Origin: Escherichia phage Mt1B1_P17
Direction: 5' to 3' (one strand)
Sequence record: NC_052662.1
Length of the DNA: 64,000 bases
Position 1 is the first letter of the stretch; the number at the start of each line of letters is the position of its first letter. The notes under the pieces were generated by a model. That model had not been told where the DNA came from, did not search any database, and saw only the letters and a program-made list of their open reading frames with translations. Both the position numbers and the translations under genes were made by a program. Below, in pieces: positions 1 to 24,401 of the stretch.

Positions 1-51
1 AACGCGAATTTTCGGGCCGTCAGGTCCACGCAGCGACAATTCCCAAATATC

Positions 52-255: not shown

Positions 256-564
256 AAACGTTTATTAACATAAAAACCAGAATAAATCAAGAATTTTCTG
301 ATTTTATTTACGTTTAAGAGAAGATGCTCAACATATCGCTACGCGATAGTATTCGCCCCCAAAAGTATTGACTTTTATTCTATTATGTGCACACTATGCA
401 ACCTGTCGCTATTCGCTCATGTTGCTACGTGCAATTATTCATCTTGCTAATGATTTCATATTGTAATTATTACAATGATTATTGTTATTGCGCTAATGTT
501 ATGATCTTGGTAATTACATATAATGCTAATAATAAGCCAGCGCAATAAGTGTAAGCGTCATTAC

Positions 565-583
565 GCTTGCAATTATTGCAAGC
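565..583. repeat. perfect palindrome GCTTGCAAT-T-ATTGCAAGC
   Basis: 9-bp arms read directly; adjacent second inverted repeat TAAGCGT/ACGCTTA at 552..568. Confidence 0.5.
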
Positions 584-1200
584 TACGCAGTAACAAGAAA
601 TAACCATCACCGATGGTTATGATTGTTGGGGTGTAGTTGGCTTATTATTAGCTCGCTATGTGTCCGGCATAGCGTGCTAATGATGATCCTGGGAATGATT
701 CGTTTTGTAATGATTTCATTCAGTCACTATTATGGCAATAGTTATTATTTTAATGGTTTCGTTTGTTATTGTTCGTTAGTTGGTTGTTTTGTCGTGTTAT
801 CGTTATCTTGCTTAGTATTCATCATGGTTTGATTGTTTCTTGTTATCAATCATCTTGCTATTATTCCTTTTATTATGATTAGTTTGCTTATTGTTTTAGG
901 TTGTTGGTTAGTTAGTTGTTGCGAACTGTTATCAACATTATAGTTATGCGCTTATATTGCATATATAATCATGTATAGATGATAATGGTTATCATTGCAC
1001 TAGAAAGGAGGTAAAAGGGTGTTTTTGATGGTTTGTTGTTGGTTGTTGATCGATTTTAACCGCTATAAATGGCTCTCTAACAGCCTGTTACCCTGGGAGG
1101 TATGGTTATTCGTTTAATGGTTGATTAGCTCGATACCGCGATTTATTCAATTTTGTTCTGTGTCGGTTTTTCATAGGCGAAAGCTATCAACATTGTTCGG

Positions 1201-1228
1201 GCAAAAAGAAAGGGCGCTTGGTGCGCCC
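1201..1228 (-). terminator. intrinsic terminator hairpin GGGCGC-TTGGT-GCGCCC (copy 1 of 3)
   Basis: Stem-loop with T-rich flanks just downstream of the stop of CDS 1245..1664; identical hairpin at 1776..1794 and 7207..7225. Confidence 0.5.
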
Positions 1229-1244
1229 CTTGTTTTGTTGTCAA

Positions 1245-1664
1245 TTATAACGCTTCATAGATTGAGTAGATCCGGTTTGCCAGGTCATTACGAAAGCGGA
1301 ATTTTTCATCACGTTTGATCATCAGATCCTTAAAACCGCATTCTTTCAGTGCTTCATTAACTTTATGGCGGCAAACGTTCATATTATCCTGCGCGTCACC
1401 AATAAACTTATTGCTGTGATGCATTGCTTTGATCTCTTCCTCTAATACCAGGGCAACTACACGGATCGGATCAAGCTGATATGCGGTAACATCCATGCGG
1501 CATTGTAAACGGCTTTTAACATCGTTTACCGGATATACTGCAACCTCTTCCCCGTCAACGTTCACGATAACCAATTTACCATCGATTTCGAAGCCTTTGG
1601 CGGCGCTACCGTGACAAAAAGCGTTATCGAAGGAGTAAGCTGGATTATTTGATTTAATGTTCAT
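1245..1664 (-). CDS. hypothetical early protein (139 aa)
   Basis: ORF with own TTGACA-N17-TATATT promoter upstream (about 1720..1750). Confidence 0.5.
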   Translation of the reverse strand: MNIKSNNPAYSFDNAFCHGSAAKGFEIDGKLVIVNVDGEEVAVYPVNDVKSRLQCRMDVTAYQLDPIRVVALVLEEEIKAMHHSNKFIGDAQDNMNVCRHKVNEALKECGFKDLMIKRDEKFRFRNDLANRIYSIYEAL

Positions 1665-1775
1665 GTTTTTATCCTTTGTTTCGTTTCGTTGTTTGCTGCC
1701 AGTGAGTTAAATATAATATAACGCCGATCCCCTGTCAATAGGGGATAGCGCATTATTTACATTTCTTTACGTTAA

Positions 1776-1794
1776 AGGGCGCTTGGTGCGCCCT
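1776..1794 (-). terminator. terminator hairpin copy 2 (AGGGCGCTTGGTGCGCCCT)
   Basis: Same hairpin as 1212..1228; lies between stop of 1804..2172 and the promoter of the next gene. Confidence 0.45.
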
Positions 1795-1803
1795 TGTATA
1801 ATC

Positions 1804-2172
1804 TTACTTTGTGCTGTTGTAAACGTTATCGCGTTCAACCATCACGGCAAGGCGGATCAGTTGATCAGTTGTATCGCGTAAACTGTCGGGCCATGTTTTA
1901 CTGTTCCAGTTATCCAGGTTTGACTGTATATAGGTTTCAATGGCTTGATCCATATTATCAAACAAGTTTTCCTCCAGGCTCTCGGCTGTTTCACACTGGA
2001 AAGCATTAGCGACACTATTAATCAATAAGCAAGCCAGTAAATCAGCATTACGCCAATTTTTACGGATAGTTTCATCTGTCAAATAACCAACGAGATTAAC
2101 CTTTGCGCCAGTGGTTGACGTTGCGATCACTTCTTGTGCTTTTTCAAGTGCTTTAATTACTGATTTGCTCAT
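1804..2172 (-). CDS. hypothetical early protein (122 aa)
   Basis: ORF; RBS AGAGGAAAAG; TTGCTT-N17-TATAGT promoter upstream. Confidence 0.5.
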   Translation of the reverse strand: MSKSVIKALEKAQEVIATSTTGAKVNLVGYLTDETIRKNWRNADLLACLLINSVANAFQCETAESLEENLFDNMDQAIETYIQSNLDNWNSKTWPDSLRDTTDQLIRLAVMVERDNVYNSTK

Positions 2173-2250
2173 CTTCTTTTCCTCTTTGTGGGCTTGCTGT
2201 ATTGCTCGCCCTACGCAATAACTATAAGTTAACAGGAGCTAGAAAGCAAG

Positions 2251-2484
2251 TTATTTTTTATAAAATTTTTCTGCTGTGATATTCTTCCCAGTAGGCTTAA
2301 CCACTTGCAAGATCTTATCATGTGCCGAACGTCCAAAAGAGTAAGATCCGTACACGGTAAACCAATAATCCCCGTTCGGTTGAACGGTTACGGCGGCGTA
2401 CGGTGTACCTCTTTCATTATCCCCGATAAAGTGAGAAACATTACCGTTAACATTTGGTTTAGTGCTTTTAATTTGTTCGATCAT
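2251..2484 (-). CDS. hypothetical early protein (77 aa)
   Basis: ORF; RBS AGGAG; promoter/hairpin cassette 2503..2562 upstream. Confidence 0.5.
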   Translation of the reverse strand: MIEQIKSTKPNVNGNVSHFIGDNERGTPYAAVTVQPNGDYWFTVYGSYSFGRSAHDKILQVVKPTGKNITAEKFYKK

Positions 2485-2502
2485 GATATGACTCCTAAAT
2501 CA

Positions 2503-2562
2503 GGCGGGAAACATTCCCGCCCTACGTGATAAATGATAATGTAAGCGTGATCCGGTGTCAAT
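2503..2562 (-). promoter_or_regulatory. early promoter cassette: TTGACA-N17-TATCAT, then TAGGGCGGG and 5' stem-loop GGCGGGAA-ACA-TTCCCGCC
   Basis: Read on minus strand; -35 at 2557..2562, -10 at 2533..2538, hairpin 2503..2521. Confidence 0.6.
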
Positions 2563-2867
2563 AGGTAGGATTGTAAAGATTTGATAGTTTATCTCTTTGA
2601 TGTTTTGTTGTTTGATAGATGTTAGCTATCAATATATAGCGGGGTCGTCCGGTGATTATCTTCCCCTGCTTCCAGGTGCCGCCCGTTCAATAAGTATAAC
2701 AAAAAACAGGACAAAAACAAGCCCTGTTTATTTATCTTAAAACCAGTTGCCAACCGTTTCCAATAGGTCACTGACTACCAGGACAACATTGATCAGCACA
2801 TGTTCAACCATGAAGGGGATAAGCGCCAGCGTTGCTACTACGATCCCCATTGTGATGATTACCTTTC

Positions 2868-3158
2868 TCATTGTTGGCGGTTTACGTAAGCTTTACCGTT
2901 TACGGTCATCGGTATGGCCTCAAGGTCTGGATCTTCCTTAAGGTCGCGTGCAAGCTCACCGCAGCGGATACCCTCGAATCCGTGGTATTCTGTCGTGCCG
3001 TCCTGGAAAGTTTTAGCGGCAAGGCATAGGCGATAATTAACGCCGATCCGGTTCACTGCGTTAATATCGGTTAACGTGATGGATTCTGGCAACTCTTTCG
3101 CCATTACAGGCGCGTTAATACCAACAACCAGGGCAACTACTGCGATCATCTTTTTCAT
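2868..3158 (-). CDS. secreted/periplasmic small protein (N-terminal signal peptide MKKMIAVVALVVGINAPVMA)
   Basis: ORF with hydrophobic signal-like N-terminus; 5' hairpin GGGGCGGTAACGCCCC and RBS upstream. Confidence 0.5.
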   Translation of the reverse strand: MKKMIAVVALVVGINAPVMAKELPESITLTDINAVNRIGVNYRLCLAAKTFQDGTTEYHGFEGIRCGELARDLKEDPDLEAIPMTVNGKAYVNRQQ

Positions 3159-3213
3159 GCTTTCTAGCCTCTTCCTATTGCGTTTAATGGGGCGTTACCG
3201 CCCCGCTTATGGT

Positions 3214-3450
3214 TTATTGATTGATGTTATAATGAAAATTATTTTCTTCAATAGCTTTTAAAATAAAAGCCGTGATCGCTTTCGTGTCTACTTGTTCGAA
3301 CGTATCGGAATAGCACCAATAATGATCATCCCCTACTTTCGGCGGGTAAACCTGGACAAGGAGATCGCCACCTGGTTGATCTATAAGCTCAACATGCAAG
3401 CCGGATGATTCAGCGGTTTTAACGGCGTTTAATACTGTTGCAATACTCAT
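3214..3450 (-). CDS. hypothetical early protein (78 aa)
   Basis: ORF; RBS; 5' hairpin GGGGCGGCAACGCCCC upstream. Confidence 0.45.
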   Translation of the reverse strand: MSIATVLNAVKTAESSGLHVELIDQPGGDLLVQVYPPKVGDDHYWCYSDTFEQVDTKAITAFILKAIEENNFHYNINQ

Positions 3451-3494
3451 AATCTTTCCCTTTCTGATGTGGGGCGTTGCCGCCCCTTTGTTGA

Positions 3495-3794
3495 TTAGAT
3501 CGCTGTTTCCAGTAGTTCGGCTAACGTCTTACCGCCTGATAGTTGGTCTAACGTTTGCTCTTCTGGCAAGAAATTAGCTGATATTAAACCGACTTGATTC
3601 CCTTTGTGCCAATTAGCTTGACGGATGATTCCATCCTTTAAGGATTTTACCGCCATTGTGCAACCGTCGCCAAATGATTCATTTTTATGATCCATCACTT
3701 CGTAAGCGCCCAGTTTGCTGCTGTTAGGCACCATTAACGCGAATACATCACCAACAACCAGTTTTTCTACGGTAACAATAGCGATAGTTTCCAT
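3495..3794 (-). CDS. hypothetical early protein (99 aa)
   Basis: ORF; RBS GAGGAAAG; cassette 3813..3869 upstream. Confidence 0.5.
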   Translation of the reverse strand: METIAIVTVEKLVVGDVFALMVPNSSKLGAYEVMDHKNESFGDGCTMAVKSLKDGIIRQANWHKGNQVGLISANFLPEEQTLDQLSGGKTLAELLETAI

Positions 3795-3812
3795 TTTACT
3801 TTCCTCATTATT

Positions 3813-3869
3813 GGCGGCACCATTGCCGCCCTACGTGGTAAATATTAGCACACTGGCGATCTGTGTCAA
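3813..3869 (-). promoter_or_regulatory. early promoter cassette: TTGACA-N16-TAATAT plus 5' stem-loop GGCGGCAATGGTGCCGCC
   Basis: -35 at 3864..3869, -10 at 3842..3847, hairpin 3813..3830 (minus-strand reading). Confidence 0.6.
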
Positions 3870-3875
3870 TACTTT

Positions 3876-4262
3876 TTATTCAATATAAATCAAATTATCT
3901 TCACCAATGTAAGCCGACACGTTCGGCATAAACTTAGCTGCATTGGTTAGGCGGTTCGCCGTGTTAGTGGTGTATATCTCAGGGCGATCCCAAAAGCCTA
4001 CGCCGTGACCGTTACGGGTAAAATGTAAATCATTCCCGATCTGGTTGGCTGTTGCGCCGTCGCTCATTGCCTCAGAGATAGCGGCAAGATTAGCATTAAT
4101 AAAGGCTGTTACATCCTGGGCGATCCGTTCGTCCGCGCTAGGAGAAAAATCATAATCGTCTAAGTTATCAATAAAATTACCTTCATGATCCCTTGCTGAT
4201 TCAGCAAAAATAAAGGCTTCTTTATAGCCGTTGATGATTTCAATAATGATTTCTGTTTTCAT
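3876..4262 (-). CDS. hypothetical early protein (128 aa)
   Basis: ORF; start overlaps stop of upstream gene. Confidence 0.5.
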   Translation of the reverse strand: MKTEIIIEIINGYKEAFIFAESARDHEGNFIDNLDDYDFSPSADERIAQDVTAFINANLAAISEAMSDGATANQIGNDLHFTRNGHGVGFWDRPEIYTTNTANRLTNAAKFMPNVSAYIGEDNLIYIE

Positions 4263-4483
4263 GCTGTACGCTCGACAATAATAATAGTTTGCGGGATCTC
4301 GTTTTCTACTACTAACAAGGCTTTTTTCTGTGTGATAGATATTTTAACACGTTGTAAAGTAGCGGTAAAATCTTTCATTTCATTATGCGCGGACTTCGTG
4401 CAATGCCAGATCTCAGGCTTACCAACTTGTAAGCCGCGTAAAAATTCCGTTTTGCCTGTTTTGTTCGTGATCATTTGTTTCAC
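4259..4483 (-). CDS. hypothetical early protein (74 aa)
   Basis: ORF in operon-like arrangement. Confidence 0.4.
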   Translation of the reverse strand: MKQMITNKTGKTEFLRGLQVGKPEIWHCTKSAHNEMKDFTATLQRVKISITQKKALLVVENEIPQTIIIVERTA

Positions 4484-4484
4484 C

Positions 4485-4589
4485 TTAACCGATACCGTGG
4501 GAAGATAGGATCATATTAGCCATAGTTGCAACTACTCCAACCGATAACGCTAGGCCAACCACTGCAACCGTGAAAATTTTCTCTAACAT
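4485..4589 (-). CDS. small hydrophobic (membrane) protein, about 35 aa
   Basis: Start moved to internal Met (MLEKIF...) downstream of the 5' hairpin; the track ORF 4485..4688 translates the hairpin. Confidence 0.35.
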   Translation of the reverse strand: MLEKIFTVAVVGLALSVGVVATMANMILSSHGIG

Positions 4590-4672
4590 GATTCTACCCT
4601 CATTAATGGGCGTTGCACCATTGCCCCGCCCTACGTAATACACTTTACTAGATAACAAATTATTGTCAAGCT

Positions 4673-4810
4673 TTATTTTACTTCCCAAACGGAAAATTCG
4701 CTGCCTGTTGGGATCATTTTTTTAATCTTGTTTGCTGCCGCTACCAGGTCAACGGCTTGTACTGTAATAATATAACCAATTGTCGAGGCTGTTGCGTTGA
4801 AAGTTTTCAT
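4673..4810 (-). CDS. small protein, about 45 aa (below track cut-off)
   Basis: ATG at 4810 with RBS AAAGGGCAA and 5' hairpin GGCGGGATTAATCCCGCC upstream. Confidence 0.4.
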   Translation of the reverse strand: MKTFNATASTIGYIITVQAVDLVAAANKIKKMIPTGSEFSVWEVK

Positions 4811-4854
4811 TATATTGCCCTTTAATACAGGCGGGATTAATCCCGCCTTGTTGA

Positions 4855-5025
4855 TTACTCTTCATTGTCGCCGTTATAGTATTCAATGCCGTTTTCATCG
4901 GTTACGGTGATGTTAACGCCACCGATAGCAACACGATCACGGGCAAACGTCATAGCTTCATTTAAATCTTCAGACCAAAAAATATTGTGACCTTTGCGCG
5001 ATACATAAAACATAGTCGGGATCAT
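4855..5025 (-). CDS. hypothetical early protein, about 56 aa
   Basis: Track ORF N-terminus (YHIGRRNGPP) is translated hairpin; start set to internal Met. Confidence 0.4.
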   Translation of the reverse strand: MIPTMFYVSRKGHNIFWSEDLNEAMTFARDRVAIGGVNITVTDENGIEYYNGDNEE

Positions 5026-5110
5026 GATTTGTTTCTCTTCTGTTATGAGCGGTGGACCATTCCGCCGCCCTATGTGGTAAACTTTACTACGTTGTTTGCG
5101 TGCTGTCAAA

Positions 5111-5395
5111 TTATTTTTTAATGTTTTGCCCTACAAAATTGATCACTTCCTTAAGCTGTCTCTCTGTCATGATCGTACCTGGTAACTCTTCTTTAATTTC
5201 TTCCGGTAAATAGATATTACCGCGCCAGGTTAACAAACAACCGTTTTGATCTTCGCAGATAGAATAAGAAAACATCCACTCGCAATCATTTTCAAGCTCC
5301 CAAAAACACAAAAAGTCTTCTTTCCCTAAGTTTTCAACGGTTAAACATAATCCGCGACGTGCTGCATAATTAGTTAGGCTTTTTGTAATTTTCAT
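5111..5395 (-). CDS. hypothetical early protein (94 aa)
   Basis: ORF; RBS; cassette 5418..5472 upstream. Confidence 0.5.
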   Translation of the reverse strand: MKITKSLTNYAARRGLCLTVENLGKEDFLCFWELENDCEWMFSYSICEDQNGCLLTWRGNIYLPEEIKEELPGTIMTERQLKEVINFVGQNIKK

Positions 5396-5417
5396 GATTT
5401 TTCTCTCTTCTTGTGAG

Positions 5418-5472
5418 CGGCACCATTGCCGCCCTACAAGATATATATTATCAGACTAGGCGGACTTGTCAA
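5418..5472 (-). promoter_or_regulatory. early promoter cassette: TTGACA-N16-TAATAT plus 5' stem-loop GCGGCAATGGTGCCGC
   Basis: -35 at 5467..5472, -10 at 5445..5450, hairpin 5418..5433. Confidence 0.6.
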
Positions 5473-5473
5473 A

Positions 5474-5584
5474 CTATTTTTTCTTTTTCTTTGCTTCCAA
5501 CCGTCTAAGGTTACGGCTTGACTTATTGCGCAAGGCGCTTAGATCGTCGTACCCTTTCCATGCTTGCATATCTTTCGGATTCAT
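5474..5584 (-). CDS. small basic protein, about 36 aa (MNPKDMQAWKG...KKKKK)
   Basis: Internal Met with strong RBS AAGGGGGAT; weak call. Confidence 0.3.
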   Translation of the reverse strand: MNPKDMQAWKGYDDLSALRNKSSRNLRRLEAKKKKK

Positions 5585-5594
5585 GTTATCCCCC

Positions 5595-5873
5595 TTAACG
5601 ATTATAAACATTATGGATGGCTTCAAAGGCAAGATGACCATAAGCCGCCAAATCGGGATTGATCCAAGCGTTATCCAACATCGTTTCAAGGACTGTGGAA
5701 TCATCGTATAAAGCATCATAGAAATCTGCACGGATGATCGTTTCAATGTCGTCCGGTGTTAGTTTGTCGTTCAACTTGCACACTGTTTCAACGTCAACAC
5801 CAATTTTCCAATTTTGTAAATTAGTGGTTAACATTGTTTTCATTTCTTCGGTTGTTAATTTAACGATGGTCAT
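5595..5873 (-). CDS. hypothetical early protein (92 aa)
   Basis: ORF; RBS AGAAGAGAG; TTGACA promoter and 5' hairpin GGGGCGACAAGCGCCCC upstream. Confidence 0.5.
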   Translation of the reverse strand: MTIVKLTTEEMKTMLTTNLQNWKIGVDVETVCKLNDKLTPDDIETIIRADFYDALYDDSTVLETMLDNAWINPDLAAYGHLAFEAIHNVYNR

Positions 5874-5953
5874 GATTTTTTCTCTCTTCTGTTAGGCGGG
5901 GCGCTTGTCGCCCCTATGTGATACATCTTATCAGGTTGATTCAGCTTGTCAAA

Positions 5954-6115
5954 CTATTTGTTAGCCGGATTATATGCCAGGACCGCGCCACTTGCTTTCA
6001 CGCTTTCCGCTTCATAGTTGCGCAGATCGTTTTCTGTAAGATTGAGCGCGATCACTTCCTCGATCTCAACGCCAGCGGCAAGGGCGATCTCTTTGATAAT
6101 ATCTGTTGTTTTCAT
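5954..6115 (-). CDS. hypothetical small protein, about 53 aa
   Basis: Internal Met (MKTTDIIKEI) with RBS AAGGTG. Confidence 0.4.
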   Translation of the reverse strand: MKTTDIIKEIALAAGVEIEEVIALNLTENDLRNYEAESVKASGAVLAYNPANK

Positions 6116-6127
6116 GGTGTGCACCTT

Positions 6128-6247
6128 ATAAGATGATTGATAAGATAGTGACAACGAAAGCGATTATACTGATGGCAAATGTCATCTTTTTACCTTCGGA
6201 TACTGCCGGATTCTCTACCGTGTATTCTACTGTGTACTTGCTCATCG
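6128..6247 (-). CDS. small membrane protein, about 39 aa (C-terminal hydrophobic helix)
   Basis: ATG at 6247 with RBS; TTGCAA-N18-TATTTA promoter and 5' hairpin upstream. Confidence 0.4.
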
Positions 6248-6343
6248 TGTAATCCTCTCGTTTGCTTTGGGAACTATTCCCGCCGCCCTATGAATTAAAT
6301 ATACACTATCTCAAAATGATTGCAAGCCTTTTTCTAAATTATT

Positions 6344-6628
6344 TTATGCAGTAAACAAACCATCATTTACAACGGCGGCGATGATCTCCCGTGCCATTGA
6401 TTCAGGGAAAGGGGCGCTATAGTCCTGGCTTGTCTCATCGGTATCGGTGATCCAATGATAAGCTAACGAGTAAAAGCCTTTACTAACTGTTTTCAGTGAG
6501 ATGATGATCACTCGGTCAAGCTTATTGGTGAATGTTGCCGTTAATGTGTTACCCTCCTGCGTCATGTTGGACAAGTAAGCGAGATCATTAATCAGGGAAA
6601 ACATTAGCACGGTGTTAGCTTTACTCAT
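6344..6628 (-). CDS. hypothetical early protein, about 94 aa
   Basis: Start moved to internal Met (MSKANTV) after the hairpin; RBS GAGGATG. Confidence 0.5.
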   Translation of the reverse strand: MSKANTVLMFSLINDLAYLSNMTQEGNTLTATFTNKLDRVIIISLKTVSKGFYSLAYHWITDTDETSQDYSAPFPESMAREIIAAVVNDGLFTA

Positions 6629-6699
6629 GATTGCATCCTCAAAGGGGCGCGGCACCATTGCCGCCCTACACGATAACTATAACACAATGTAAAACAGGA

Positions 6700-6906
6700 T
6701 CAACCTTTATTTTTCCACGGTGTCAGCTTGTTAATCATTGGTGATAAATAGCGTTTACCAACGTAAAACAGTACGCCAACTGATGCAACGGCGGCGACCT
6801 CATGCAAGGAGGAAGGACGCGCGGTGTCATAGTAGGTACCAATAATAGCAATAGCGGCTACTGCGGCAATGTCTGTAATAATTTTTTCTTGTTTTGTTGT
6901 GATCAT
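6700..6906 (-). CDS. small membrane protein (68 aa)
   Basis: Hydrophobic stretches; RBS; 5' hairpin GGCGGGGAATAGTTCCCCACC upstream. Confidence 0.45.
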   Translation of the reverse strand: MITTKQEKIITDIAAVAAIAIIGTYYDTARPSSLHEVAAVASVGVLFYVGKRYLSPMINKLTPWKNKG

Positions 6907-6991
6907 AATATTTACCTTTTTGTATGGTGGGGAACTATTCCCCGCCTGATGTAATACAGTTTAACAGGTCCGGTTATGGTGTCAACCACTT

Positions 6992-7177
6992 TTAAAGATA
7001 TTTTATGCTAATGACGTTTTCAGGTTTTACCTTGTTATGATGTGCATCAACATAGATCAAACCATCGTCAGAAAAGCCCAGGATCACACCCTGCGCGATA
7101 AAACCATACGCATCACGGTAACGCACGGCTATTTTTAATGTTGCGTTATAGGCTGTTTTAAGCTCGCTTAAAGTCAT
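6992..7177 (-). CDS. hypothetical early protein (61 aa)
   Basis: ORF; RBS GAGGATAAACA. Confidence 0.45.
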   Translation of the reverse strand: MTLSELKTAYNATLKIAVRYRDAYGFIAQGVILGFSDDGLIYVDAHHNKVKPENVISIKYL

Positions 7178-7206
7178 CTTTGTTTATCCTCTACATATAA
7201 AAAGAA

Positions 7207-7225
7207 AGGGCGCTTGGTGCGCCCT
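7207..7225 (-). terminator. terminator hairpin copy 3 (AGGGCGCTTGGTGCGCCCT)
   Basis: Identical to 1776..1794; T-tract on minus strand. Confidence 0.45.
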
Positions 7226-7233
7226 TGTTATGT

Positions 7234-7380
7234 TAATCCTCTAAATCCATCCAATTATATTTGTCACTCTTCCCGCGCTTTGTTTTATTGCGCTTGTCGC
7301 CTTTGCGGATCACTTCCTCGTTCCAGGCCTTGCGGATCTTGGAAGATTGAATTTTTTCTGCGCGATTAGATGTATTCATT
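7234..7380 (-). CDS. small basic protein, about 48 aa (K/R-rich)
   Basis: ATG at 7380; RBS GAGGAAAC; TTGACA-N17-TAAATT promoter and 5' hairpin upstream. Confidence 0.4.
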
Positions 7381-7458
7381 TTGTTTCCTCTTCATATGAG
7401 CGGCACCATTGCCGCTATATTGTTAATTTAAACTGTTTTGTAAAATTGTCAAGGTTTA

Positions 7459-7812
7459 TCATTCATAAGAGCAAGCAAGGATCACGCCTGCAATATAAAG
7501 CCAATAATTTTCCCTTTCTCGTTGGATTTTATCATCGCTGCTATTCTCTTTAATGTATCCCCAGGATGTTAACAAACGATCAATTTCCCAATATTCGAAA
7601 GCTATATTAATATCTGATGGCAAGCCTTGTAACCATGATGCAAGTGCTTTAACAATACTATAATTAAAACGTGATTGATTATCAGGGTACCAGTACTCGG
7701 AATTAAAACGGCGCATCAATTCCGCGATCTTCTCTTTTTCGGTTGTAATACCATAATCATTAAAATCGATAGCGGCAAGGATGTACTCTTTAATTGCATT
7801 TTGTGCTTTCAT
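7459..7812 (-). CDS. hypothetical early protein (117 aa)
   Basis: ORF; RBS; cassette 7831..7887 upstream. Confidence 0.5.
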   Translation of the reverse strand: MKAQNAIKEYILAAIDFNDYGITTEKEKIAELMRRFNSEYWYPDNQSRFNYSIVKALASWLQGLPSDINIAFEYWEIDRLLTSWGYIKENSSDDKIQRERENYWLYIAGVILACSYE

Positions 7813-7830
7813 GGTCTTTCTCTCTTTTTA

Positions 7831-7887
7831 GCGGGAACTATTCCCGCCCTACGTGTAACAGTTTACTGAAAATTAAATCCGTGTCAA
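7831..7887 (-). promoter_or_regulatory. early promoter cassette: TTGACA-N16-TAAACT plus 5' stem-loop GCGGGAATAGTTCCCGC
   Basis: -35 at 7882..7887, -10 at 7860..7865, hairpin 7831..7847. Confidence 0.6.
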
Positions 7888-7890
7888 GCT

Positions 7891-8112
7891 TTATTTTGTT
7901 ACTACCATTTGGTACCCTGTTTCAATGTTAGTAAATACTGTTATCCCGTCCTGGCGTTCACTCATTAGCATACAAGGCGCTAACATCCTTTCTACTGCCT
8001 TGCACTCATTGTAAACGGCGGTTATGTCTCCTGCGGCCTTGTCTTCTGTGGTGAATGTATCGTTTATGTAAACTTGACCAGCGACAACGGCGACAATAGC
8101 GAAAGTGATCAT
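7891..8112 (-). CDS. hypothetical protein (73 aa), hydrophobic N-terminus
   Basis: ORF with RBS. Confidence 0.4.
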   Translation of the reverse strand: MITFAIVAVVAGQVYINDTFTTEDKAAGDITAVYNECKAVERMLAPCMLMSERQDGITVFTNIETGYQMVVTK

Positions 8113-8185
8113 GATGTCTTTCTCTTTATGTGTTTCTATTAGTTGATATTACAGCAATTCGCAGATTAGTTTTTAGCAATTCGTG

Positions 8186-8404
8186 CTATTTACTCATAAC
8201 AGTATCGAAAACAAATTTTTCTTTGTTGTCAAAGCTCACGTATCCGATTCGACCACGCAAGCCGCAAGTAGTGCCGTATTCGTAACCGTCAAGACCTTTA
8301 ACCTTCCAATCCACGCCCATTAAAACCGCATTATATTTCTGACCAACTACAAACGCGCCACCAGTTGATTCAATGCAAACAACTTTAATTTTACGGATTG
8401 CCAT
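8186..8404 (-). CDS. hypothetical early protein (72 aa)
   Basis: ORF; 5' hairpin TATAGCGCC-TTACAAT-GGGCGCTATA upstream. Confidence 0.45.
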   Translation of the reverse strand: MAIRKIKVVCIESTGGAFVVGQKYNAVLMGVDWKVKGLDGYEYGTTCGLRGRIGYVSFDNKEKFVFDTVMSK

Positions 8405-8485
8405 TTTCTTTCTCTCTTTCTGGTGATTGGTTTCTCTTCTCTATAGCGCCCATTGTAAGGCGCTATAACGAAAAGTCAACGATTA

Positions 8486-8650
8486 TTTTTTAAGGCTTAA
8501 AGTACCTAACTTGTCAGCATGACGTAGACCAGGGAAGATCCATTTTCCTGATTCATCTTTTACAGGGGCTTTAAACGTAGCGCCCAGGTTGGCGGCGTTA
8601 ACTTTACGGGCAACGTTGCGAGCGGCTTCACGGGTAGCGAAAGTGATCAT
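8486..8650 (-). CDS. small protein, about 54 aa (below track cut-off)
   Basis: ATG at 8650; RBS GAAGAGGAAAAC; TTGCAA-N16-TAAACT promoter and 5' hairpin upstream. Confidence 0.4.
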
Positions 8651-8741
8651 GGTGTTTTCCTCTTCTCTTTGTTAGGCGGTGGACCATTCCGCCGCCTTGA
8701 TGTAATACAGTTTACTTTATTTTTGCAGTATTGCAAGCGTT

Positions 8742-8954
8742 TTATGAAATAATCGTCAAAGTAAAATTGTAATCACCTGATTGGTACAATACTTTATCAC
8801 CGAAAGTTCCAACACGTTTAACATTGCAATATATACCCATAACACTTTTTACATCTTTGATATTCTTCACGCCTGTAATATCTTTATTAAAATGATCGTG
8901 ATCAGAAAATAAAACTTGACTTGCATTTTTTAACAGTGTACGGATATTAGCCAT
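8742..8954 (-). CDS. hypothetical early protein (70 aa)
   Basis: ORF; TTGACA-N16-TAAACT promoter and 5' hairpin upstream. Confidence 0.45.
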   Translation of the reverse strand: MANIRTLLKNASQVLFSDHDHFNKDITGVKNIKDVKSVMGIYCNVKRVGTFGDKVLYQSGDYNFTLTIIS

Positions 8955-9044
8955 CGTGATAATCTCTCTTCTGTTGTGAGCGGCACTATTGCCGCCCTAC
9001 GTAATACAGTTTACTCTTTTTCTTTCCCGTGTCAACAATCTTTT

Positions 9045-9272
9045 TCAGATTAATTCATCCAGGCATAACAGGCGATCAACGTTGAGATCTGTTAGGCTGA
9101 TGGTTGGCACCTGGTAGGATTCGATGTACTCGACGCTTGCATATTCCCCAAAATTAGCAACAGCCCACTTATTCAAGATCTCACATACATCATTAATCTT
9201 TTTGTTTGTTACAACTGCTACAACCTGGGAATAGCCAACGGTGCCGGATACGCGAACAATATTGATAGCCAT
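9045..9272 (-). CDS. hypothetical early protein (75 aa)
   Basis: ORF; promoter/hairpin cassette upstream. Confidence 0.45.
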   Translation of the reverse strand: MAINIVRVSGTVGYSQVVAVVTNKKINDVCEILNKWAVANFGEYASVEYIESYQVPTISLTDLNVDRLLCLDELI

Positions 9273-9363
9273 AATCTTTAATCTCTCTGTTGTGAGCGGG
9301 AAACCATTTCCCGCCTTATGTGATACATCTTACACTAATTTTAAACGTTGTCAACTGTTTTTA

Positions 9364-9603
9364 TTACATTCCAACCATCGCGGCGCGGATCGCTGTAGTG
9401 CTATACTTGAAACCGTCTGGAGTTTTATCTTGTCCAGTTTGTTCCAGGAATAACATCATATCACGGGCAGCATCATTACGATTAGTATTAGCGGCGATAA
9501 ATTCTTTCGCCAACCGATATAATGATTCGTCATTATTAATCCAAAGGCTTACATTCCAGTGAGTTTTATTTTTGTGACCTAAGAACATTTTTGATTTAGC
9601 CAT
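9364..9603 (-). CDS. hypothetical early protein (79 aa)
   Basis: ORF; promoter/hairpin cassette upstream. Confidence 0.45.
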   Translation of the reverse strand: MAKSKMFLGHKNKTHWNVSLWINNDESLYRLAKEFIAANTNRNDAARDMMLFLEQTGQDKTPDGFKYSTTAIRAAMVGM

Positions 9604-9692
9604 GATATTAATCTCTTTTTCAGTGAGGCGGGAAGTATTCCCGCTCTCTATGTAATACAGTTTACTCTTTTTATTCGTGCTGTCAATGCTTT

Positions 9693-10058
9693 TTATAAAT
9701 CTTTTTTACGTTTAACATCACTCGCATGACTGTATACAGTGATCCCATTGTCACGGCAAAAACGGGAAAGATACGCGCCGCGTGAAAACTCTTTACCTTC
9801 CATATTAATAACCTTGCTAAATTCTTCCAGGGCGACGGTATCAAAATGATCACCATAGCCATATTGAAACGGAACGTTAACCACCTCGATCAGTTTACCG
9901 CCGATCTCAACGTCAACCATTAAAGAAAAATATGTGTTACCGTAGGACTGTTGAAACCAGCGACGGGCGCTAATGTGCACCGCTTCAATGCTGGATAATT
10001 CAATTTTAGCCGTGTTAGCCAGGGTAGCATAAGCGGAAACATTGATATTAATAGCCAT
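9693..10058 (-). CDS. hypothetical early protein (121 aa)
   Basis: ORF; TTGACA-N17-CATAAT promoter and 5' hairpin upstream. Confidence 0.5.
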   Translation of the reverse strand: MAININVSAYATLANTAKIELSSIEAVHISARRWFQQSYGNTYFSLMVDVEIGGKLIEVVNVPFQYGYGDHFDTVALEEFSKVINMEGKEFSRGAYLSRFCRDNGITVYSHASDVKRKKDL

Positions 10059-10155
10059 GATGATAATCTCTCTTTTTGGTTAGTGGGAAGTATTCCCGAT
10101 AAAAGTTATTATGCTTATACTATCACTCATTGTCAATAGTATAAGACTAAAACTT

Positions 10156-10335
10156 TTAACGATAATCGTTATAGGCTTTATTGACCTGGCGAATGTAACA
10201 TTCGAAAGCAAGATCAATGTATTCGTATTCACGCACATAATCACCATAGGTCACTACATACATTTTTAAAGTTTCCTCATAAGCCAGGAGGATCGAATCT
10301 AAACCTATAATCTCAGTTTTTGCAATGATAGCCAT
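10156..10335 (-). CDS. small protein, about 59 aa (below track cut-off)
   Basis: ATG at 10335; RBS; TTGACA-N16-TATAGT promoter and hairpin GGCGGCAATGGTGCCGCC upstream. Confidence 0.4.
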   Translation of the reverse strand: MAIIAKTEIIGLDSILLAYEETLKMYVVTYGDYVREYEYIDLAFECYIRQVNKAYNDYR

Positions 10336-10418
10336 GATGTTAACCTTTTATTGTTGGCGGCACCATTGCCGCCCTACGTGATAAACTATACCAGAAGTTT
10401 AAACAGTGTCAACCGTTT

Positions 10419-10781
10419 TTATTCGTAAATTTTACCGCTTTCGGCCCATACCATAACGCGGCGCATACTATCCCAAGTGTTTTGATCCAGGTTTAAGCCG
10501 TGCAACTCTTCGGTACTTCCCAGACCAGGTACCGCTTTGTTGTAAGTCGCATATAAGCGCCCTTGATACTCATACACCAGAGTAAGATCCGTTTGAATCA
10601 TCTTTTTAAGCATAGCATTAAGCATCATATTAGCGGCATGTTGATCACGTTTTAGCGGTAACATATCAATAAGGGCGCGATAAGCTGAAACATGGATATC
10701 AACCGTTTCACGTGGTAAATTTTTCATATCATCGCGGAAAGATACCAGATTAAACATGATAGTATTGATTTGCTTGCTCAT
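10419..10781 (-). CDS. hypothetical early protein (120 aa)
   Basis: ORF; cassette 10803..10863 upstream. Confidence 0.5.
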   Translation of the reverse strand: MSKQINTIMFNLVSFRDDMKNLPRETVDIHVSAYRALIDMLPLKRDQHAANMMLNAMLKKMIQTDLTLVYEYQGRLYATYNKAVPGLGSTEELHGLNLDQNTWDSMRRVMVWAESGKIYE

Positions 10782-10802
10782 TGTGTTACCCTTTTTTGTT
10801 TT

Positions 10803-10863
10803 GGCGGGGAAGTATTCCGCCGCCCTATGTGATACATCTTATCAGATTAAAAAACGTTGTCAA
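10803..10863 (-). promoter_or_regulatory. early promoter cassette: TTGACA-N16-TAAGAT plus 5' stem-loop
   Basis: -35 at 10858..10863, -10 at 10836..10841, hairpin 10803..10824. Confidence 0.6.
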
Positions 10864-10871
10864 GAATATTT

Positions 10872-10967
10872 TTAGAAAATAATAGCCGCTACTACAACCC
10901 AAAATGGAACGGCTAGAATGATAGCGTTAATCGTTCCAACCGTCAAGCTATTTTCTTTATTAATCAT
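10872..10967 (-). CDS. very small membrane protein, about 31 aa
   Basis: ATG at 10967; RBS AAGAGGCTT; TTGACA-N17-TAATAT promoter and hairpin upstream; hydrophobic C-terminal half. Confidence 0.35.
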   Translation of the reverse strand: MINKENSLTVGTINAIILAVPFWVVVAAIIF

Positions 10968-11049
10968 TGTAAGCCTCTTGCATAATTTCACTATGAGCGG
11001 CACCATTGCCGCCCTACGTGGTAAATATTATGCCAGTGGCGGCGATATG

Positions 11050-11616
11050 TCAAAGACTATTTTCAAAGTTTTCTAGTGCTATCCTTTTTTCTTCCTCTGT
11101 CGGCTGATAATCAGGAAAAGCATCAACACACAACAACGGCGGGATCTCTTCGTACTCTTCCTCTTCCGTTGTCTCCTCGTCTTCCTCCTGGGCTATGGCT
11201 GCAATTTTGGCTAATTTTCTTTCGGCTTGAATCAATTTACCATCAAGTACGTTTTTTGCCATGTTGTAAGCGGTCCAGGTGATGCGCTTACTTTCCAGAG
11301 CTTCATCAAGCGCCGCTATCTTGCTGGGGTATTCATCCAGGACACGAAAAGCCGGATCAACTTTGTACAAAGGATTATCTTTCGCGCCGTCGCTCGCATC
11401 TTCTGCACTGGATAAATCAGCGTTACCATTTGCCAGCCAGCCAGGGCGCACATAACGCGCTTTTACGTTGCCGTTACTACGTGCTAATCTGTTACCTATT
11501 TGCTCACCGCTATATCCCGTGGATTCATCGATAAGATGATCGGGAATGATGCGCGGATCATCTGCTTCATGTTTTACCCAAGACTGGATCACATATTCGC
11601 GGCCCATATTAACCAC
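11050..11616 (-). CDS. hypothetical acidic protein (188 aa; E/D-rich C-terminus)
   Basis: ORF; RBS AAAGGTGG; start overlaps stop of upstream gene. Confidence 0.5.
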   Translation of the reverse strand: MVNMGREYVIQSWVKHEADDPRIIPDHLIDESTGYSGEQIGNRLARSNGNVKARYVRPGWLANGNADLSSAEDASDGAKDNPLYKVDPAFRVLDEYPSKIAALDEALESKRITWTAYNMAKNVLDGKLIQAERKLAKIAAIAQEEDEETTEEEEYEEIPPLLCVDAFPDYQPTEEEKRIALENFENSL

Positions 11617-11866
11617 CTTTTTTCAACAATTGGCATACTTTAAAAAGACTTGCTGAATCCTTGCAAGGGTAGAAAGATGTACGATAGTCACGTACGCCAA
11701 CCTTGCGGATCTCGATGTTCTCGCATGTTGTTTGATCAAAGATATTTATTTCATCACGCCCCCTTATATAAACATAGTGGGGATGTATTAACGCATATTT
11801 TGCTAATCTGTAAAAAGCGTTATCTTTGAACGCGATCACGTGACCTTTTAATTTGATGTAAAACAT
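11609..11866 (-). CDS. hypothetical early protein (85 aa)
   Basis: ORF; RBS AAGGTGG; TTGACA-N16-TAATAT promoter and 5' hairpin upstream. Confidence 0.45.
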   Translation of the reverse strand: MFYIKLKGHVIAFKDNAFYRLAKYALIHPHYVYIRGRDEINIFDQTTCENIEIRKVGVRDYRTSFYPCKDSASLFKVCQLLKKGG

Positions 11867-11942
11867 TCTACCACCTTACAAATAGCGGGAACTATTCCCG
11901 CTTTATGTAACATATTAACAAATTATTCGTTAATGTCAAGCC

Positions 11943-12215
11943 TTAAAGCAAAAACGCTACATCTTGCGCTTTTAGTGTAGTATCAACCATTTTCGGGCTT
12001 TTATAATCAACAAAGCGCGCGGTTTTTTCAATAGCGAAACCGAGATAATCTTGCTTGTTGAAATTACATTCTTTCTTAAATGTTTCCCGTGCAATGGCAA
12101 TCGCTGCGTCCAGGGATAAACGCCCGTCAATATTGATATTAGCGAAAGATCCGCCACCGCTCATAGGTTTACCAGTGGTGCCAGCTACGATCATTGTTGC
12201 GCTATATGATGCCAT
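11943..12215 (-). CDS. hypothetical early protein, about 90 aa
   Basis: Track ORF N-terminus (YHIGRRNGPA) is translated hairpin; start set to internal Met MASYSAT. Confidence 0.45.
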   Translation of the reverse strand: MASYSATMIVAGTTGKPMSGGGSFANINIDGRLSLDAAIAIARETFKKECNFNKQDYLGFAIEKTARFVDYKSPKMVDTTLKAQDVAFLL

Positions 12216-12304
12216 GATGATAATCTCTCTGTTGTGAGCGGCTGGACCATTCCGCCGCCCTATGTGATACATCTTATCAGGTTGTTGTTTGTTGTCAATA
12301 CTTT

Positions 12305-12502
12305 TTATTCTATCCCTGCAATTTGATTAACGCGCTTGCATTTTGTAGCGTGCTGGTCTTCTGTAATGACTCCCATTTCTAACAGGGAATCAATGAAAGA
12401 TAAAACCGTTTCATGATCATCCTGGGGATGACTGAACTCAGTAAAACCGTTTACTATTACGTTGATTTGTCCAGCTTTCGCCACAATATGCAATGTTGCC
12501 AT
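12305..12502 (-). CDS. hypothetical early protein (65 aa)
   Basis: ORF; RBS; TTGACG-N17-TAGTAT promoter about 150 nt upstream. Confidence 0.4.
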   Translation of the reverse strand: MATLHIVAKAGQINVIVNGFTEFSHPQDDHETVLSFIDSLLEMGVITEDQHATKCKRVNQIAGIE

Positions 12503-12775
12503 GATCTTAACTCCAGGTGATGAATGATGTTTTTTGTTGGTGGACGGTGGATTATGGAGATCCTCACCTTTGCCCGTCCTGCATTGCGCCCTCCTGTTGT
12601 TTATTGTCGTTGTGCCGCGCCCCCCTCGACAAGATGAATACTACGCTACCAGGTGAGGAACGTCAACCACTTTTTCAATCTTTTTTATTTTCTTTTTGCT
12701 TGCTATGTATAAAGGAAAGGGCTATTATCTTTCTACCGCGCCAACCAGGGCGCACAACAAAGAAAGGGCGACACC

Positions 12776-13042
12776 ATGACAAATACTACATTACACCTTA
12801 TGCACTCATTGGGCTGGCAAGGCGGAACGGTGCACCAGGTAGCAAGCGCAACGGGCTTAAAGGTTGAAACAGTTCTCAACCTGGGCGATCATAAGGTGGA
12901 AGAGATAGATCATTTTGATACGTTCGCAAATGGTTATCTATGGGCTTGCAGTGGCGGCGGGGAAAGCAAGATACCACCAGGGGCGCGGGGCGATATGTAT
13001 TTTTGGTTAGGTGTCCTATCCTGGCAAGAAAACAAAAAATAA
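12776..13042 (+). CDS. hypothetical protein (88 aa), plus strand inside a minus-strand block
   Basis: ORF with weak RBS; GC-rich surroundings; uncertain. Confidence 0.3.
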   Translation: MTNTTLHLMHSLGWQGGTVHQVASATGLKVETVLNLGDHKVEEIDHFDTFANGYLWACSGGGESKIPPGARGDMYFWLGVLSWQENKK

Positions 13043-20670: not shown

Positions 20671-20721
20671 TCCATCCTTGTATTAGTGCCATAGAGCGTG
20701 ATTACATCAAGGAGATTTTTA

Positions 20722-21708
20722 ATGATTAATGAAGAACAATTTGTAAAAGTTCCTATGTGGATTCTAAAAATAAGCCAAGTAAACGGGCATAAATTTACAG
20801 ATAGTGCTAAAAACCTTTACTGCTATTTGAGAGGGTTTGATCGTGCATTTCCCTCTTACGCTAAGATAGGCGATGTTTTTGGCATAACACCAAGAGCAGC
20901 AGAAGAAAGGGTTAAGAAATTGCTCGAAATGGGATTAATTATAAAAGATGCACGACCAGGAAGCTCTAACCTTTATCGAGTGCTTGATATTCCAAAAGGA
21001 GAATCATCACTACCTGATCCTTCTGAGAAAGAAGAAGCTATTGTTAAAGCTGTTCAGGAACAGCTTCCCCTTATGGAATGGAAGAACTTTAAAAAATGGT
21101 ACTCACCATCTGGTAATGAATACACCGCTACACTGCCAGCCGTTGAAATCTATAGCTATATAGCTGGATTCAATGAACAAGGGCAAGAATGTTACGCTAC
21201 TCAAAAAACATTAGCTAATATTGGAATGGTTAGTGATCGTCAGGTACGCAATATTATAAATATGTTTGTTGATATGGGAGTTCTTTCTGTAGAGGCACGC
21301 CACGGTCAAACATCACTCTATAAAACCTTACCCTTTACAGAGATGAATGTTAAAAAGCAAAAAAGAGTAAAAGAGATTCCGTACACTGAAAACCAACAAT
21401 CAGATTGGTGTTTTTATATACAAAAATTGGTTTCTCCCTTTTATACCTGCCTGAAAGCAGGGATTACGGTAAACATTGATCGTAGAATCAAAGAGCAAAG
21501 TAAAAACAGCATGTTTAAACATTATCTACTTGACAGTTTTAGTGGAGATTATGCTACTATTTTCTCTTTGGAGAAAGAAGTTAAAAAAGGTTTTAACCGC
21601 TCTTTATGCTTAAAAGAGTGGCTGCCAGATGGTTATACCGAAACATATAATCTAGAAGACTATGAAAGTATAAAAAATTTTGTTAGTGAGAAATTGATTA
21701 AGGAGTAA
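20722..21708 (+). CDS. putative DNA-binding protein: two winged-helix-like repeats plus C-terminal T5orf172-type domain
   Basis: Internal sequence repeat (GFDRAFPSYAKIGDVFGIT... and ECYATQKTLANIGMVSDRQVR...) and C-terminal GITVNIDRRIKEQ...PDGYTET shared with CDS 14940..15947. Confidence 0.5.
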   Translation: MINEEQFVKVPMWILKISQVNGHKFTDSAKNLYCYLRGFDRAFPSYAKIGDVFGITPRAAEERVKKLLEMGLIIKDARPGSSNLYRVLDIPKGESSLPDPSEKEEAIVKAVQEQLPLMEWKNFKKWYSPSGNEYTATLPAVEIYSYIAGFNEQGQECYATQKTLANIGMVSDRQVRNIINMFVDMGVLSVEARHGQTSLYKTLPFTEMNVKKQKRVKEIPYTENQQSDWCFYIQKLVSPFYTCLKAGITVNIDRRIKEQSKNSMFKHYLLDSFSGDYATIFSLEKEVKKGFNRSLCLKEWLPDGYTETYNLEDYESIKNFVSEKLIKE

Positions 21709-22647: not shown

Positions 22648-22963
22648 CAAAGAACCACATGTATATACTGCACTGGTAAAGCACTTGAACAAAGAACGTA
22701 ACAGGATCATTGCAGATTATCGTAAATTTAAACGTAGTAGTCTAAATCGTAAATACATGCCACATGCAGCTTTTGACGCTACACGTGCAGTATTTCGTGC
22801 AAAGATTGCGGAAATGGATAATCTGCTTAAGCTTGCACGATTATCTATTCATGCATCCAAAGTAACAGGAGTCACTCACTTCTTTGACTTCGATACTAAA
22901 GCACTATATGCACCAGAGGCAGGTGAACAATTGATTTATCTACTTACCAAAAATAAGTGTTGA
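22640..22963 (+). CDS. hypothetical protein, about 107 aa
   Basis: Start set at MANKEP with upstream RBS. Confidence 0.45.
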   Translation: MANKEPHVYTALVKHLNKERNRIIADYRKFKRSSLNRKYMPHAAFDATRAVFRAKIAEMDNLLKLARLSIHASKVTGVTHFFDFDTKALYAPEAGEQLIYLLTKNKC

Positions 22964-23132
22964 CTTTTTTCAAAAAATATGCTACCCTAACCCCGAAGGG
23001 TCGAGCGATAGCGAGTATAGATTATGTAATAGATTAATCTCTATCGTTAGATGTTCGAAGAACAGAGATTTAAGTACTTGTTCTTATCGGTAGATGATCG
23101 TAAGATCAAGAACAATAATAGGAGAGTGTGTT

Positions 23133-23330
23133 ATGTTAGTCAGTGAAATACTACCTGACTCTAATGGTAATCAGATCACTGTTGATTGGTTTCCTGGTAC
23201 TGGTACACTAGATCTAACTGCTGAATGGTCTGGTGATATTTATGGAGAAGGTGTATTATCATTGTCTACAGAACAAATGATCATCCTTCGTGACTTCTTA
23301 ATTAGTTTAGATCTAGGAGAAAACAAATGA
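23133..23330 (+). CDS. hypothetical protein, about 65 aa
   Basis: Internal Met with RBS AGGAGAG. Confidence 0.4.
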   Translation: MLVSEILPDSNGNQITVDWFPGTGTLDLTAEWSGDIYGEGVLSLSTEQMIILRDFLISLDLGENK

Positions 23331-23596
23331 GTAAAACTTCTGTTGAGTTTATCGAGAAATCCCCTGTTCCAAAGTTATACCGTTTATCTGAAATTGAACC
23401 TATGTCTGTTTTCTACTACTACGATTCAGAAGTAAGTGAACAAGAACGGGACTACTACTTAGCTACAGATACAGGTGCAGTGTGCTTAACAGGTTCTCGT
23501 GCAGGAGAATACATTGTGACTAGTCGTTTTAATGAAGCAGATTACTGTTGGGCTAAGGTTGAAACTAAGATTGTCATCAACATCACTAATCATTAA
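23327..23596 (+). CDS. hypothetical protein (89 aa)
   Basis: ORF; RBS AGGAGAAAA. Confidence 0.45.
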   Translation: MSKTSVEFIEKSPVPKLYRLSEIEPMSVFYYYDSEVSEQERDYYLATDTGAVCLTGSRAGEYIVTSRFNEADYCWAKVETKIVINITNH

Positions 23597-23606
23597 GACT
23601 AATCTG

Positions 23607-23648
23607 ACAAAGAGTTACTTGACATGTGCAAAGCTCTTTGTGTAGAAT
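23607..23648 (+). promoter_or_regulatory. promoter TTGACA-N18-TAGAAT bracketed by inverted repeat ACAAAGAG/CTCTTTGT
   Basis: -35 at 23619..23624, -10 at 23643..23648; 8-bp inverted repeat arms at 23607..23614 and 23634..23641. Confidence 0.45.
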
Positions 23649-23678
23649 AAAGATTCACTTACTAAGGAGATTTTATAA

Positions 23679-23876
23679 ATGGCTACAAAGAAACAGAAAA
23701 TGAAATGTCTTACTCTTACTGAACTGGGTCAAGCTTCCAACTGCGTTACTGTTGGTAAGATTTATTCTACAGTTCTTGATAAAGACAACAACAGTTTTAC
23801 TTTCAAAGATGATAACGGAAACCCTCAAGTTGGAATCTACCCTTCCTGTGCTTTTGGTACTTGGGAAAAAGTGTAA
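23679..23876 (+). CDS. hypothetical protein (65 aa)
   Basis: ORF; RBS AAGGAG. Confidence 0.45.
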   Translation: MATKKQKMKCLTLTELGQASNCVTVGKIYSTVLDKDNNSFTFKDDNGNPQVGIYPSCAFGTWEKV

Positions 23877-23919
23877 CTAATTAGAGGGTATACTTGTAAA
23901 CAAGATTAAGGAGGCATTT

Positions 23920-24093
23920 ATGGGAGATAAACAAAGTAACATCCGTTACGCGCTTTATGGAAGAATGGGTGCAGATTGTGAATGGATGCTTCTGTCGCAA
24001 CGTATACCCTCTTACAAAGAGGCTCTTGAAAAAAGAGACTATTATAAACAAACATGGCGTTTTGTCATTTGTAAACACTATTTGGAGGCGTGA
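23920..24093 (+). CDS. small protein, 57 aa (below track cut-off)
   Basis: ATG with RBS AAGGAGG; stop overlaps next start. Confidence 0.3.
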   Translation: MGDKQSNIRYALYGRMGADCEWMLLSQRIPSYKEALEKRDYYKQTWRFVICKHYLEA

Positions 24094-24401
24094 TGAGTAC
24101 ATTATCATTAGCAGTTACGGTGCACCAGTATTACGAAGAAGCTGTAAAAGATTCAGAAAACCCATCTACATTGGTGTTTGAAGATCGGACTGGTCTTAAA
24201 TGGGTAGAATCTGGGGATGAACTCTACTTTTGGTATCCACAAGGTTGCACAAGTAATTCTAATTTGTATAGTTATGAACTGGAGTATCGTGCGCCTGTAG
24301 ACGAAGATGACAATTACATCATGTATTATGTTAATAATGGTTGCGGTGAAACGTTTAATGTAGTATTCTCTAAAGCCTTGAAGTCCGACGAGGAGATGTA
24401 A
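24093..24401 (+). CDS. hypothetical protein, tandem paralogue A
   Basis: Shares TLSLAV...Y...VKD...EDD.FIM..VN.G.GE...VVF with CDS 24401..24706. Confidence 0.45.
   Translation: MSTLSLAVTVHQYYEEAVKDSENPSTLVFEDRTGLKWVESGDELYFWYPQGCTSNSNLYSYELEYRAPVDEDDNYIMYYVNNGCGETFNVVFSKALKSDEEM

Follow-up and report, generated by a model that had tools for sequence, protein, structure and literature searches.

A putative host-type promoter bracketed by a chance-level inverted repeat in a phAPEC8-like phage of Escherichia coli

The genome of phage rV5 contains 33 consensus-like host-type promoters distributed throughout its length, 11 of them with an extended −10 element, all of which are predicted promoters only (PMC3606486). 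The site described here is located at 23619 in a 64,000-nucleotide stretch of DNA from Escherichia phage Mt1B1_P17 (NC_052662.1), hereinafter designated the window. It is of an already known, ordinary kind, namely that of the host-type promoters spread across rV5-like genomes (PMC3606486). Specifically, it is similar to the σ70 promoters of rV5-like and phAPEC8-like phages in its consensus −35 element, its near-consensus −10 element, its spacer within the range of 16–19 nt, and its A-rich upstream flank. Nothing of substance distinguishes it from those promoters; its spacer is 18 nt long. The same promoter layout is found at ~34 sites in the window. At 23619, the TTGACA hexamer is flanked by the two arms of a perfect 8-bp inverted repeat with a 19-nt loop, which an earlier note on this DNA took for an operator-like palindrome under repressor control or for a promoter-occluding hairpin of DNA or RNA. 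The positions and letters that it gave for the two arms, the −35 hexamer, and the −10 hexamer are exact to the base.

The 2 kb around the site share 97–99.7% identity with some 60 Escherichia phages of the genus Phapecoctavirus (phAPEC8, ESCO13, tuntematon, WPEC1, and others), which are myoviruses of ~150 kb belonging to the subfamily Stephanstirmvirinae. Judged from its sequence, the source DNA is that of a Phapecoctavirus, a phAPEC8-like myovirus of E. coli. The G+C content of the phage genome is 39%. The site lies within a rightward operon of closely packed genes, which starts at ~20.2 kb, near TTGACA-N16-TAAGAT at 20187, and extends into genes of nucleotide metabolism (helicase, ribonucleotide reductase). 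The promoter occupies a gap of 82 nt between an 89-aa ORF and a 65-aa ORF, one of few such intergenic gaps in the operon. The coordinates of the features are collected in Table 1. Neither the 89-aa ORF nor the 65-aa ORF has a match in Pfam, and searches of the neighbouring ORFs against Pfam and PHROGs returned only families of unknown function.

Table 1. Features of the promoter gap and its surroundings, with positions in the window
Feature	Position	Strand	Remark
Upstream CDS, 89 aa, phrog_24836	23327..23596	+	Stop codon 10 nt before the left arm
Extended hairpin, 17 pairs including G-U	23603..23646	+	Predicted if transcribed from upstream
Left arm, ACAAAGAG	23607..23614		About −48..−41, within the A-rich flank that precedes the −35
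−35 hexamer TTGACA, 6/6	23619..23624	+	Consensus match
Spacer, 18 nt, right arm in its 3' part	23625..23642	+	Sister and third clades: 17 nt, TGn extended −10
Right arm, CTCTTTGT	23634..23641		About −21..−14, in the T-rich part of the spacer
−10 hexamer TAGAAT, 5/6	23643..23648	+	Invariant in 49/49 related loci from four lineages
Predicted transcription start	23654..23656 (~23655)	+	6–8 nt past the −10, from standard σ70 geometry
Shine-Dalgarno AAGGAG	23664..23669	+	9 nt before the ATG (23679); annotated ribosome-binding site in ESCO13
Downstream CDS, 65 aa, phrog_27862	23679..23876	+	Annotated in relatives
Examples of TTGACA promoters	12298, 11053, 10863, 10412, 9686, 9354, 9035, 7887, 6985, 5952, 5472, 5109, 4669, 3869, 2561	−	

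TTGACA-N18-TAGAAT matches the consensus at 11 of 12 positions and is the top + strand site within 18–30 kb. It is located 30 nt upstream of the 65-aa CDS and is followed by a good Shine-Dalgarno sequence and an ATG. The site has the attributes of a σ70 promoter, namely a −35 element, a −10 element with A at position 2 and T at position 6, a spacer of 16–19 nt, and placement in non-coding DNA. A literature search for transcript data from Phapecoctavirus or phAPEC8 found none. We consider it probable that the site is an ordinary promoter of the host σ70 type, with a predicted activity and start, and that the repeat around its −35 element is a coincidence.

To compare the promoter gap among relatives, 49 loci from GenBank phages and public assemblies were used, and these represent four lineages. 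A scan of IMG/VR and metagenomes with the 65-aa protein yielded only 3 distinct loci (L005 and L008 being the same contig), and look-ups of the exact protein gave more; the protein is indexed in 855 blocks, and several hundred public contigs contain the gap. Across the 49 loci of the four lineages the −10 element is invariant and the −35 element reads TTGAnn. Both hexamers are invariant in the 39 loci of the window type. The site occurs in ~63 phage records, and the repeat is identical in most close relatives. Several loci of the window type carry substitutions in or near the arms: C23608T (left arm) together with T23615C in three loci (L016, L019, L024), A23631G together with C23634T (right arm) in L009, C23629T in L010 and L026, and C23634G (right arm) in L030. 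In the ESCO13 group, which is also of the window type, G23606C lengthens the repeat to 9 bp.

The L036 type, represented by seven contigs, is diverged over the upstream gene and the gap to ~23634 (58–88% identity) and is nearly identical from 23635 to 23876. Fourteen substitutions lie in 23599–23634, and four of the eight left-arm bases are changed, which converts the arm to ATACAAAA; these contigs also carry C23634T in the right arm. All 14 substitutions spare the −35 element (p = 0.038), indicating that the hexamers outlast the surrounding sequence.

In the other two lineages the 65-aa protein is 80–88% identical, the promoter is in the identical place, and the repeat is absent. Specifically, the sister clade (phiWec179/188, PsgM04F, and metagenome contigs) has an 80% identical protein and the promoter TTGATC-N17-TGa-TAGAAT, and the third clade (L044–46) has an 88% identical protein and the promoter TTGACT-N17-TGa-TAGAAT. 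The weaker −35 elements of these clades would be compensated by the 17-nt spacer and the TGn extended −10 element. Both clades have other genes in place of the 89-aa upstream gene, of which the L036-type contigs carry a 78%-identical allele. The repeat is therefore not a conserved companion of the promoter in related phages: its arms are altered in close relatives, and two sister clades have the promoter but not the repeat. Because the hexamers are kept in four lineages while the arms vary or are missing, the conserved object is the promoter and not the arms. The promoter that had been proposed upstream of the 65-aa CDS is upheld by its consensus −35 element, its 5/6 −10 element, its placement in the gap, and the retention of hexamers and position in all four lineages.

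The gap that contains the promoter is also a mosaic junction (window 23329–23634 and 23877–23920; loci L036, L038–L043, and L033). In the L036-type contigs the allele of the upstream gene is 58–88% identical, and similarity returns to ~100% at 23635, within the promoter spacer. Similarity breaks a second time directly past the stop codon at 23876. The same promoter adjoins unrelated upstream genes in the sister and third clades.

The inverted repeat is real but at chance level. A count of perfect 8-bp inverted repeats with loops of 3–30 nt gives 56 for the window, compared with 39.8 ± 9.0 for dinucleotide shuffles. Only one of the 34 TTGACA-N16-19-TAnnnT sites on both strands, the one at 23619, is overlapped by such a repeat, and random placement of the same intervals results in a mean of 1.33 overlapped promoter-like sites, with P(≥1) = 0.74. 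The arm word occurs eight times in the window, and its other copies lie at no promoter. A search of the 64-kb window for the complete arm-N19-arm pattern, tolerating three mismatches at most, returned one chance-level match only and none at a promoter.

Base composition may account for one of the two arms. In the 12 nt that precede the −35 element, A makes up 47% on average over the 34 TTGACA-type sites, versus 30% window-wide. The A-rich region of the left arm is thus a general trait of this phage's promoters and resembles an UP-element flank. The T-rich distal spacer, which contains the right arm, is not general among spacers, and a purely compositional origin of the repeat is only half supported.

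Two further inverted repeats were observed close by. One is a second perfect 8-bp repeat (TTGTTCTT / AAGAACAA, 23078–23085 / 23108–23115, 22-nt loop) in the previous intergenic gap (22964–23132). It brackets a weak promoter-like sequence, TTGTTC-N17-TAAGAT, and TGTTC/GAACA occurs four times within 62 nt; this repeat is judged to be at chance level too. The other is a perfect 11-nt repeat (TGTAGAATAAA / TTTATTCTACA, 23641–23651 / 23761–23771) with one arm at the −10 region and the other within the 65-aa CDS. The arm in the CDS is not kept in the sister clade, and the left arm is upstream of the predicted transcription start.

Dyad operators such as lambda OR/OL, the LexA box, and the P22 Mnt and Arc operators resemble the repeat at 23619 in that dyad symmetry overlaps promoter elements. 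In the known operators of this kind, the half-sites are one or two integral helical turns apart, the site recurs at several promoters or in tandem, and its sequence is conserved together with the cognate regulator. Here, in contrast, 27 bp separate the half-sites, only a single copy exists, the arms are variable, and no cognate regulator was found. Because 27 bp between arm centres corresponds to ~2.6 helical turns, the two half-sites face different sides of the helix, unlike those of a dimer operator. It is very improbable that the arms are half-sites at which a dimeric repressor of phage or host origin blocks the −35 element and times the expression of the 65-aa ORF. Such control would agree with a perfect 8-bp dyad that brackets the −35 element, is identical in most close relatives, and reaches 9 bp in the ESCO13 group. 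However, the dyad symmetry does not exceed chance (56 versus 39.8 ± 9 repeats; 1 of 34 promoter-like sites overlapped versus 1.33 expected), and the window has no other copy at any promoter with 3 mismatches allowed. In addition, the arm sequences vary (C23608T, C23634T/G, L036 type) while the hexamers are kept, and the repeat is missing in two clades that retain both promoter and gene. The suggestion of repressor control made in the earlier note is therefore not supported, given a repeat at chance level, an arm word found at no other promoter, and arms that vary or are absent.

The only HTH protein seen nearby, of 336 aa, is encoded by ORF 20698–21708 (+); it carries two HTH_36 domains, and its C-terminal region weakly resembles MUG113/T5orf172. 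Full-length copies occur in only four phage records (best identity 90.5%, in BI-EHEC), most close relatives lack it, and its gene is probably a sporadically distributed one of homing-endonuclease type. It was considered as the cognate regulator and rejected for its sporadic distribution: four phage records have it in full length, versus ~63 with the repeat. The other small ORFs nearby have no recognisable domains in Pfam or PHROGs.

Cruciform extrusion from duplex DNA requires long arms and short loops. The AT-rich 8-bp arms and 19-nt loop of the repeat at 23619 are far from those of known extruding repeats, and too weak for the promoter-occluding DNA hairpin proposed earlier to emerge from a duplex. 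The single-stranded DNA folds with −6.3 kcal/mol (z = −1.75), which is in the direction expected for a hairpin, but 10 of 200 shuffles fold equally well and the arms are not conserved. That the repeat hides the −35 box as a cruciform or a single-strand hairpin is therefore exceedingly improbable. An RNA hairpin could not occlude the promoter through the promoter's own transcript, because the predicted start (~23655) is downstream of both arms.

An RNA hairpin could form only in a transcript that enters the gap from upstream. The repeat would then be the core of a 17-pair hairpin (23603–23646) in a polycistronic read-through mRNA from the promoter near 20187; positioned between the 89-aa and 65-aa ORFs, this hairpin would be processed or would stabilise a 3' end, and it would overlap the promoter only because both share a short gap. 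This is possible but unlikely. Read-through itself is plausible, since no + strand terminator-like site is present between 20187 and 23600. The RNA of 23597–23660 folds with −13.8 kcal/mol, and that of the ESCO13 group, with G23606C, folds with −16.3 kcal/mol (z = −2.6). However, the z-score of the window sequence is −1.56, with 15 of 200 shuffles as stable, and random 64-nt windows of the same sequence have a mean z of −0.24 (sd 1.19), 12.4% of them reaching z ≤ −1.57. An Rfam scan of 22900–24200 at E ≤ 1 gave no match.

The substitution pattern is likewise divided. Most single-base variants are compatible with G-U pairing on the + strand only (C-G to U-G, U-G to C-G), and the L036-type contigs contain one compensatory double change, from G-C to A-U. 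Pair-keeping events number ~9, versus 4 pair-breaking ones, with a binomial p of 0.03–0.13 that depends on the assumed neutral retention rate; the pair-breaking changes are C23634G in L030 and three L036-type changes. For the 17-pair structure in the eight distinct alignable variants, 94.1% of cells are paired, versus 93.2% in shuffles (75 of 500 as high). The covariation score of 0.172, versus 0.145 in shuffles, is reached by 36 of 500 and is not significant, and the single pair with a double change is equalled in 303 of 500 shuffles. In an ungapped cross-clade alignment of 10 sequences, the 8 pairs of the repeat exceeded 500 of 500 shuffles; we discount this count because columns of different clades are non-homologous, the first row supplied the structure, and 79% of cells remain paired after a slide by +2.

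The gap can fold into other hairpins in the other lineages, with z = −3.1 in the sister clade, but these hairpins are not homologous from one lineage to the next, and the gap of the third clade is unstructured (z = −0.7). The gap of the L036 type folds with z of about −1.3 to −1.5. Intercistronic hairpins of phage mRNAs, such as the RNase III sites of T7 and 3' stabilisers, share with the predicted hairpin a stem-loop between ORFs of a long operon and the lack of a U-tract. Those hairpins are long and conserved, and their cleavage or protective action has been demonstrated by experiment, whereas the one predicted here is short, AU-rich, statistically unremarkable, and variable between lineages.

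The lack of a U-tract also means that the hairpin is not a terminator. A terminator-then-promoter arrangement shares with this site a hairpin just past a stop codon and beside a promoter, and a true example is present in the window at ~50270–50320. An intrinsic terminator was considered at 23619 and rejected because the T-run is absent and the stem is weak: only 3 of the 8 stem pairs are G-C, the loop measures 19 nt, the tail reads GTAGAATAAAG, and the site is missing from the terminator scan.

The sister clade has a 13-bp hairpin of its own, GAGGTTGTATTCT-GAT-AGAATGCAATCTC, across its −10 element (1963–1991 of the phiWec179 locus, L002; the same in L003–L005, L007, and L008). It folds with −16 kcal/mol and z of about −3.1 to −3.2. 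The third clade lacks this hairpin despite sharing its right arm. It is conceivable, though rather improbable in our estimate, that each lineage is selected for some stem-loop over the conserved promoter in the mosaic-junction gap. The stem-loop would be placed differently each time: around the −35 element in the window and L036 types, over the −10 element in the phiWec179 clade, and with the −35 element as an arm in the third clade. If this were true, RNA structure would mark a processing or stability boundary at module junctions in the read-through mRNA, or alternatively the structure would couple upstream read-through to internal initiation.

Other promoter-like elements are present in the window. 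More than 15 near-consensus promoters of the form TTGACA-N17-TAAnnT, on the − strand of window 1–13000 (Table 1) and also on the + strand at 35844, each precede a small ORF. Each is followed by a conserved GC-rich stem-loop ~8 nt past the −10 element (e.g. GGGCGGCAATGGTGCCGCC), so that every transcript would begin with the stem-loop. The arrangement looks like a repeated cassette of a promoter plus a 5' stem-loop, similar to the 'promoter-early stem-loop' cassettes of T4-type phages. No such GC-rich stem-loop follows the promoter at 23619, which differs in this from the − strand promoters. An antisense promoter-like sequence with 11 of 12 matches, ATGACA-N16-TATAAT, is located at 24041–24068 (− strand) inside the 57-aa ORF 23920..24093, and may be an antisense promoter or a product of chance.

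Taken as an ordinary host-type promoter, the site at 23619 would most likely work in a simple way: host RNA polymerase would initiate near 23655 and add transcription of the 65-aa ORF and the genes that follow it. We infer that the repeat has no role; it would be required by no regulatory step, and is most likely a coincidence. If active, the site is one more host-type internal promoter in the early/middle operon of phAPEC8-like phages, placed before small ORFs. In a phage genome of 39% G+C, short AT-rich inverted repeats around promoters arise by chance at approximately the observed rate, and such repeats should not be taken as operators unless they are recurrent or conserved.
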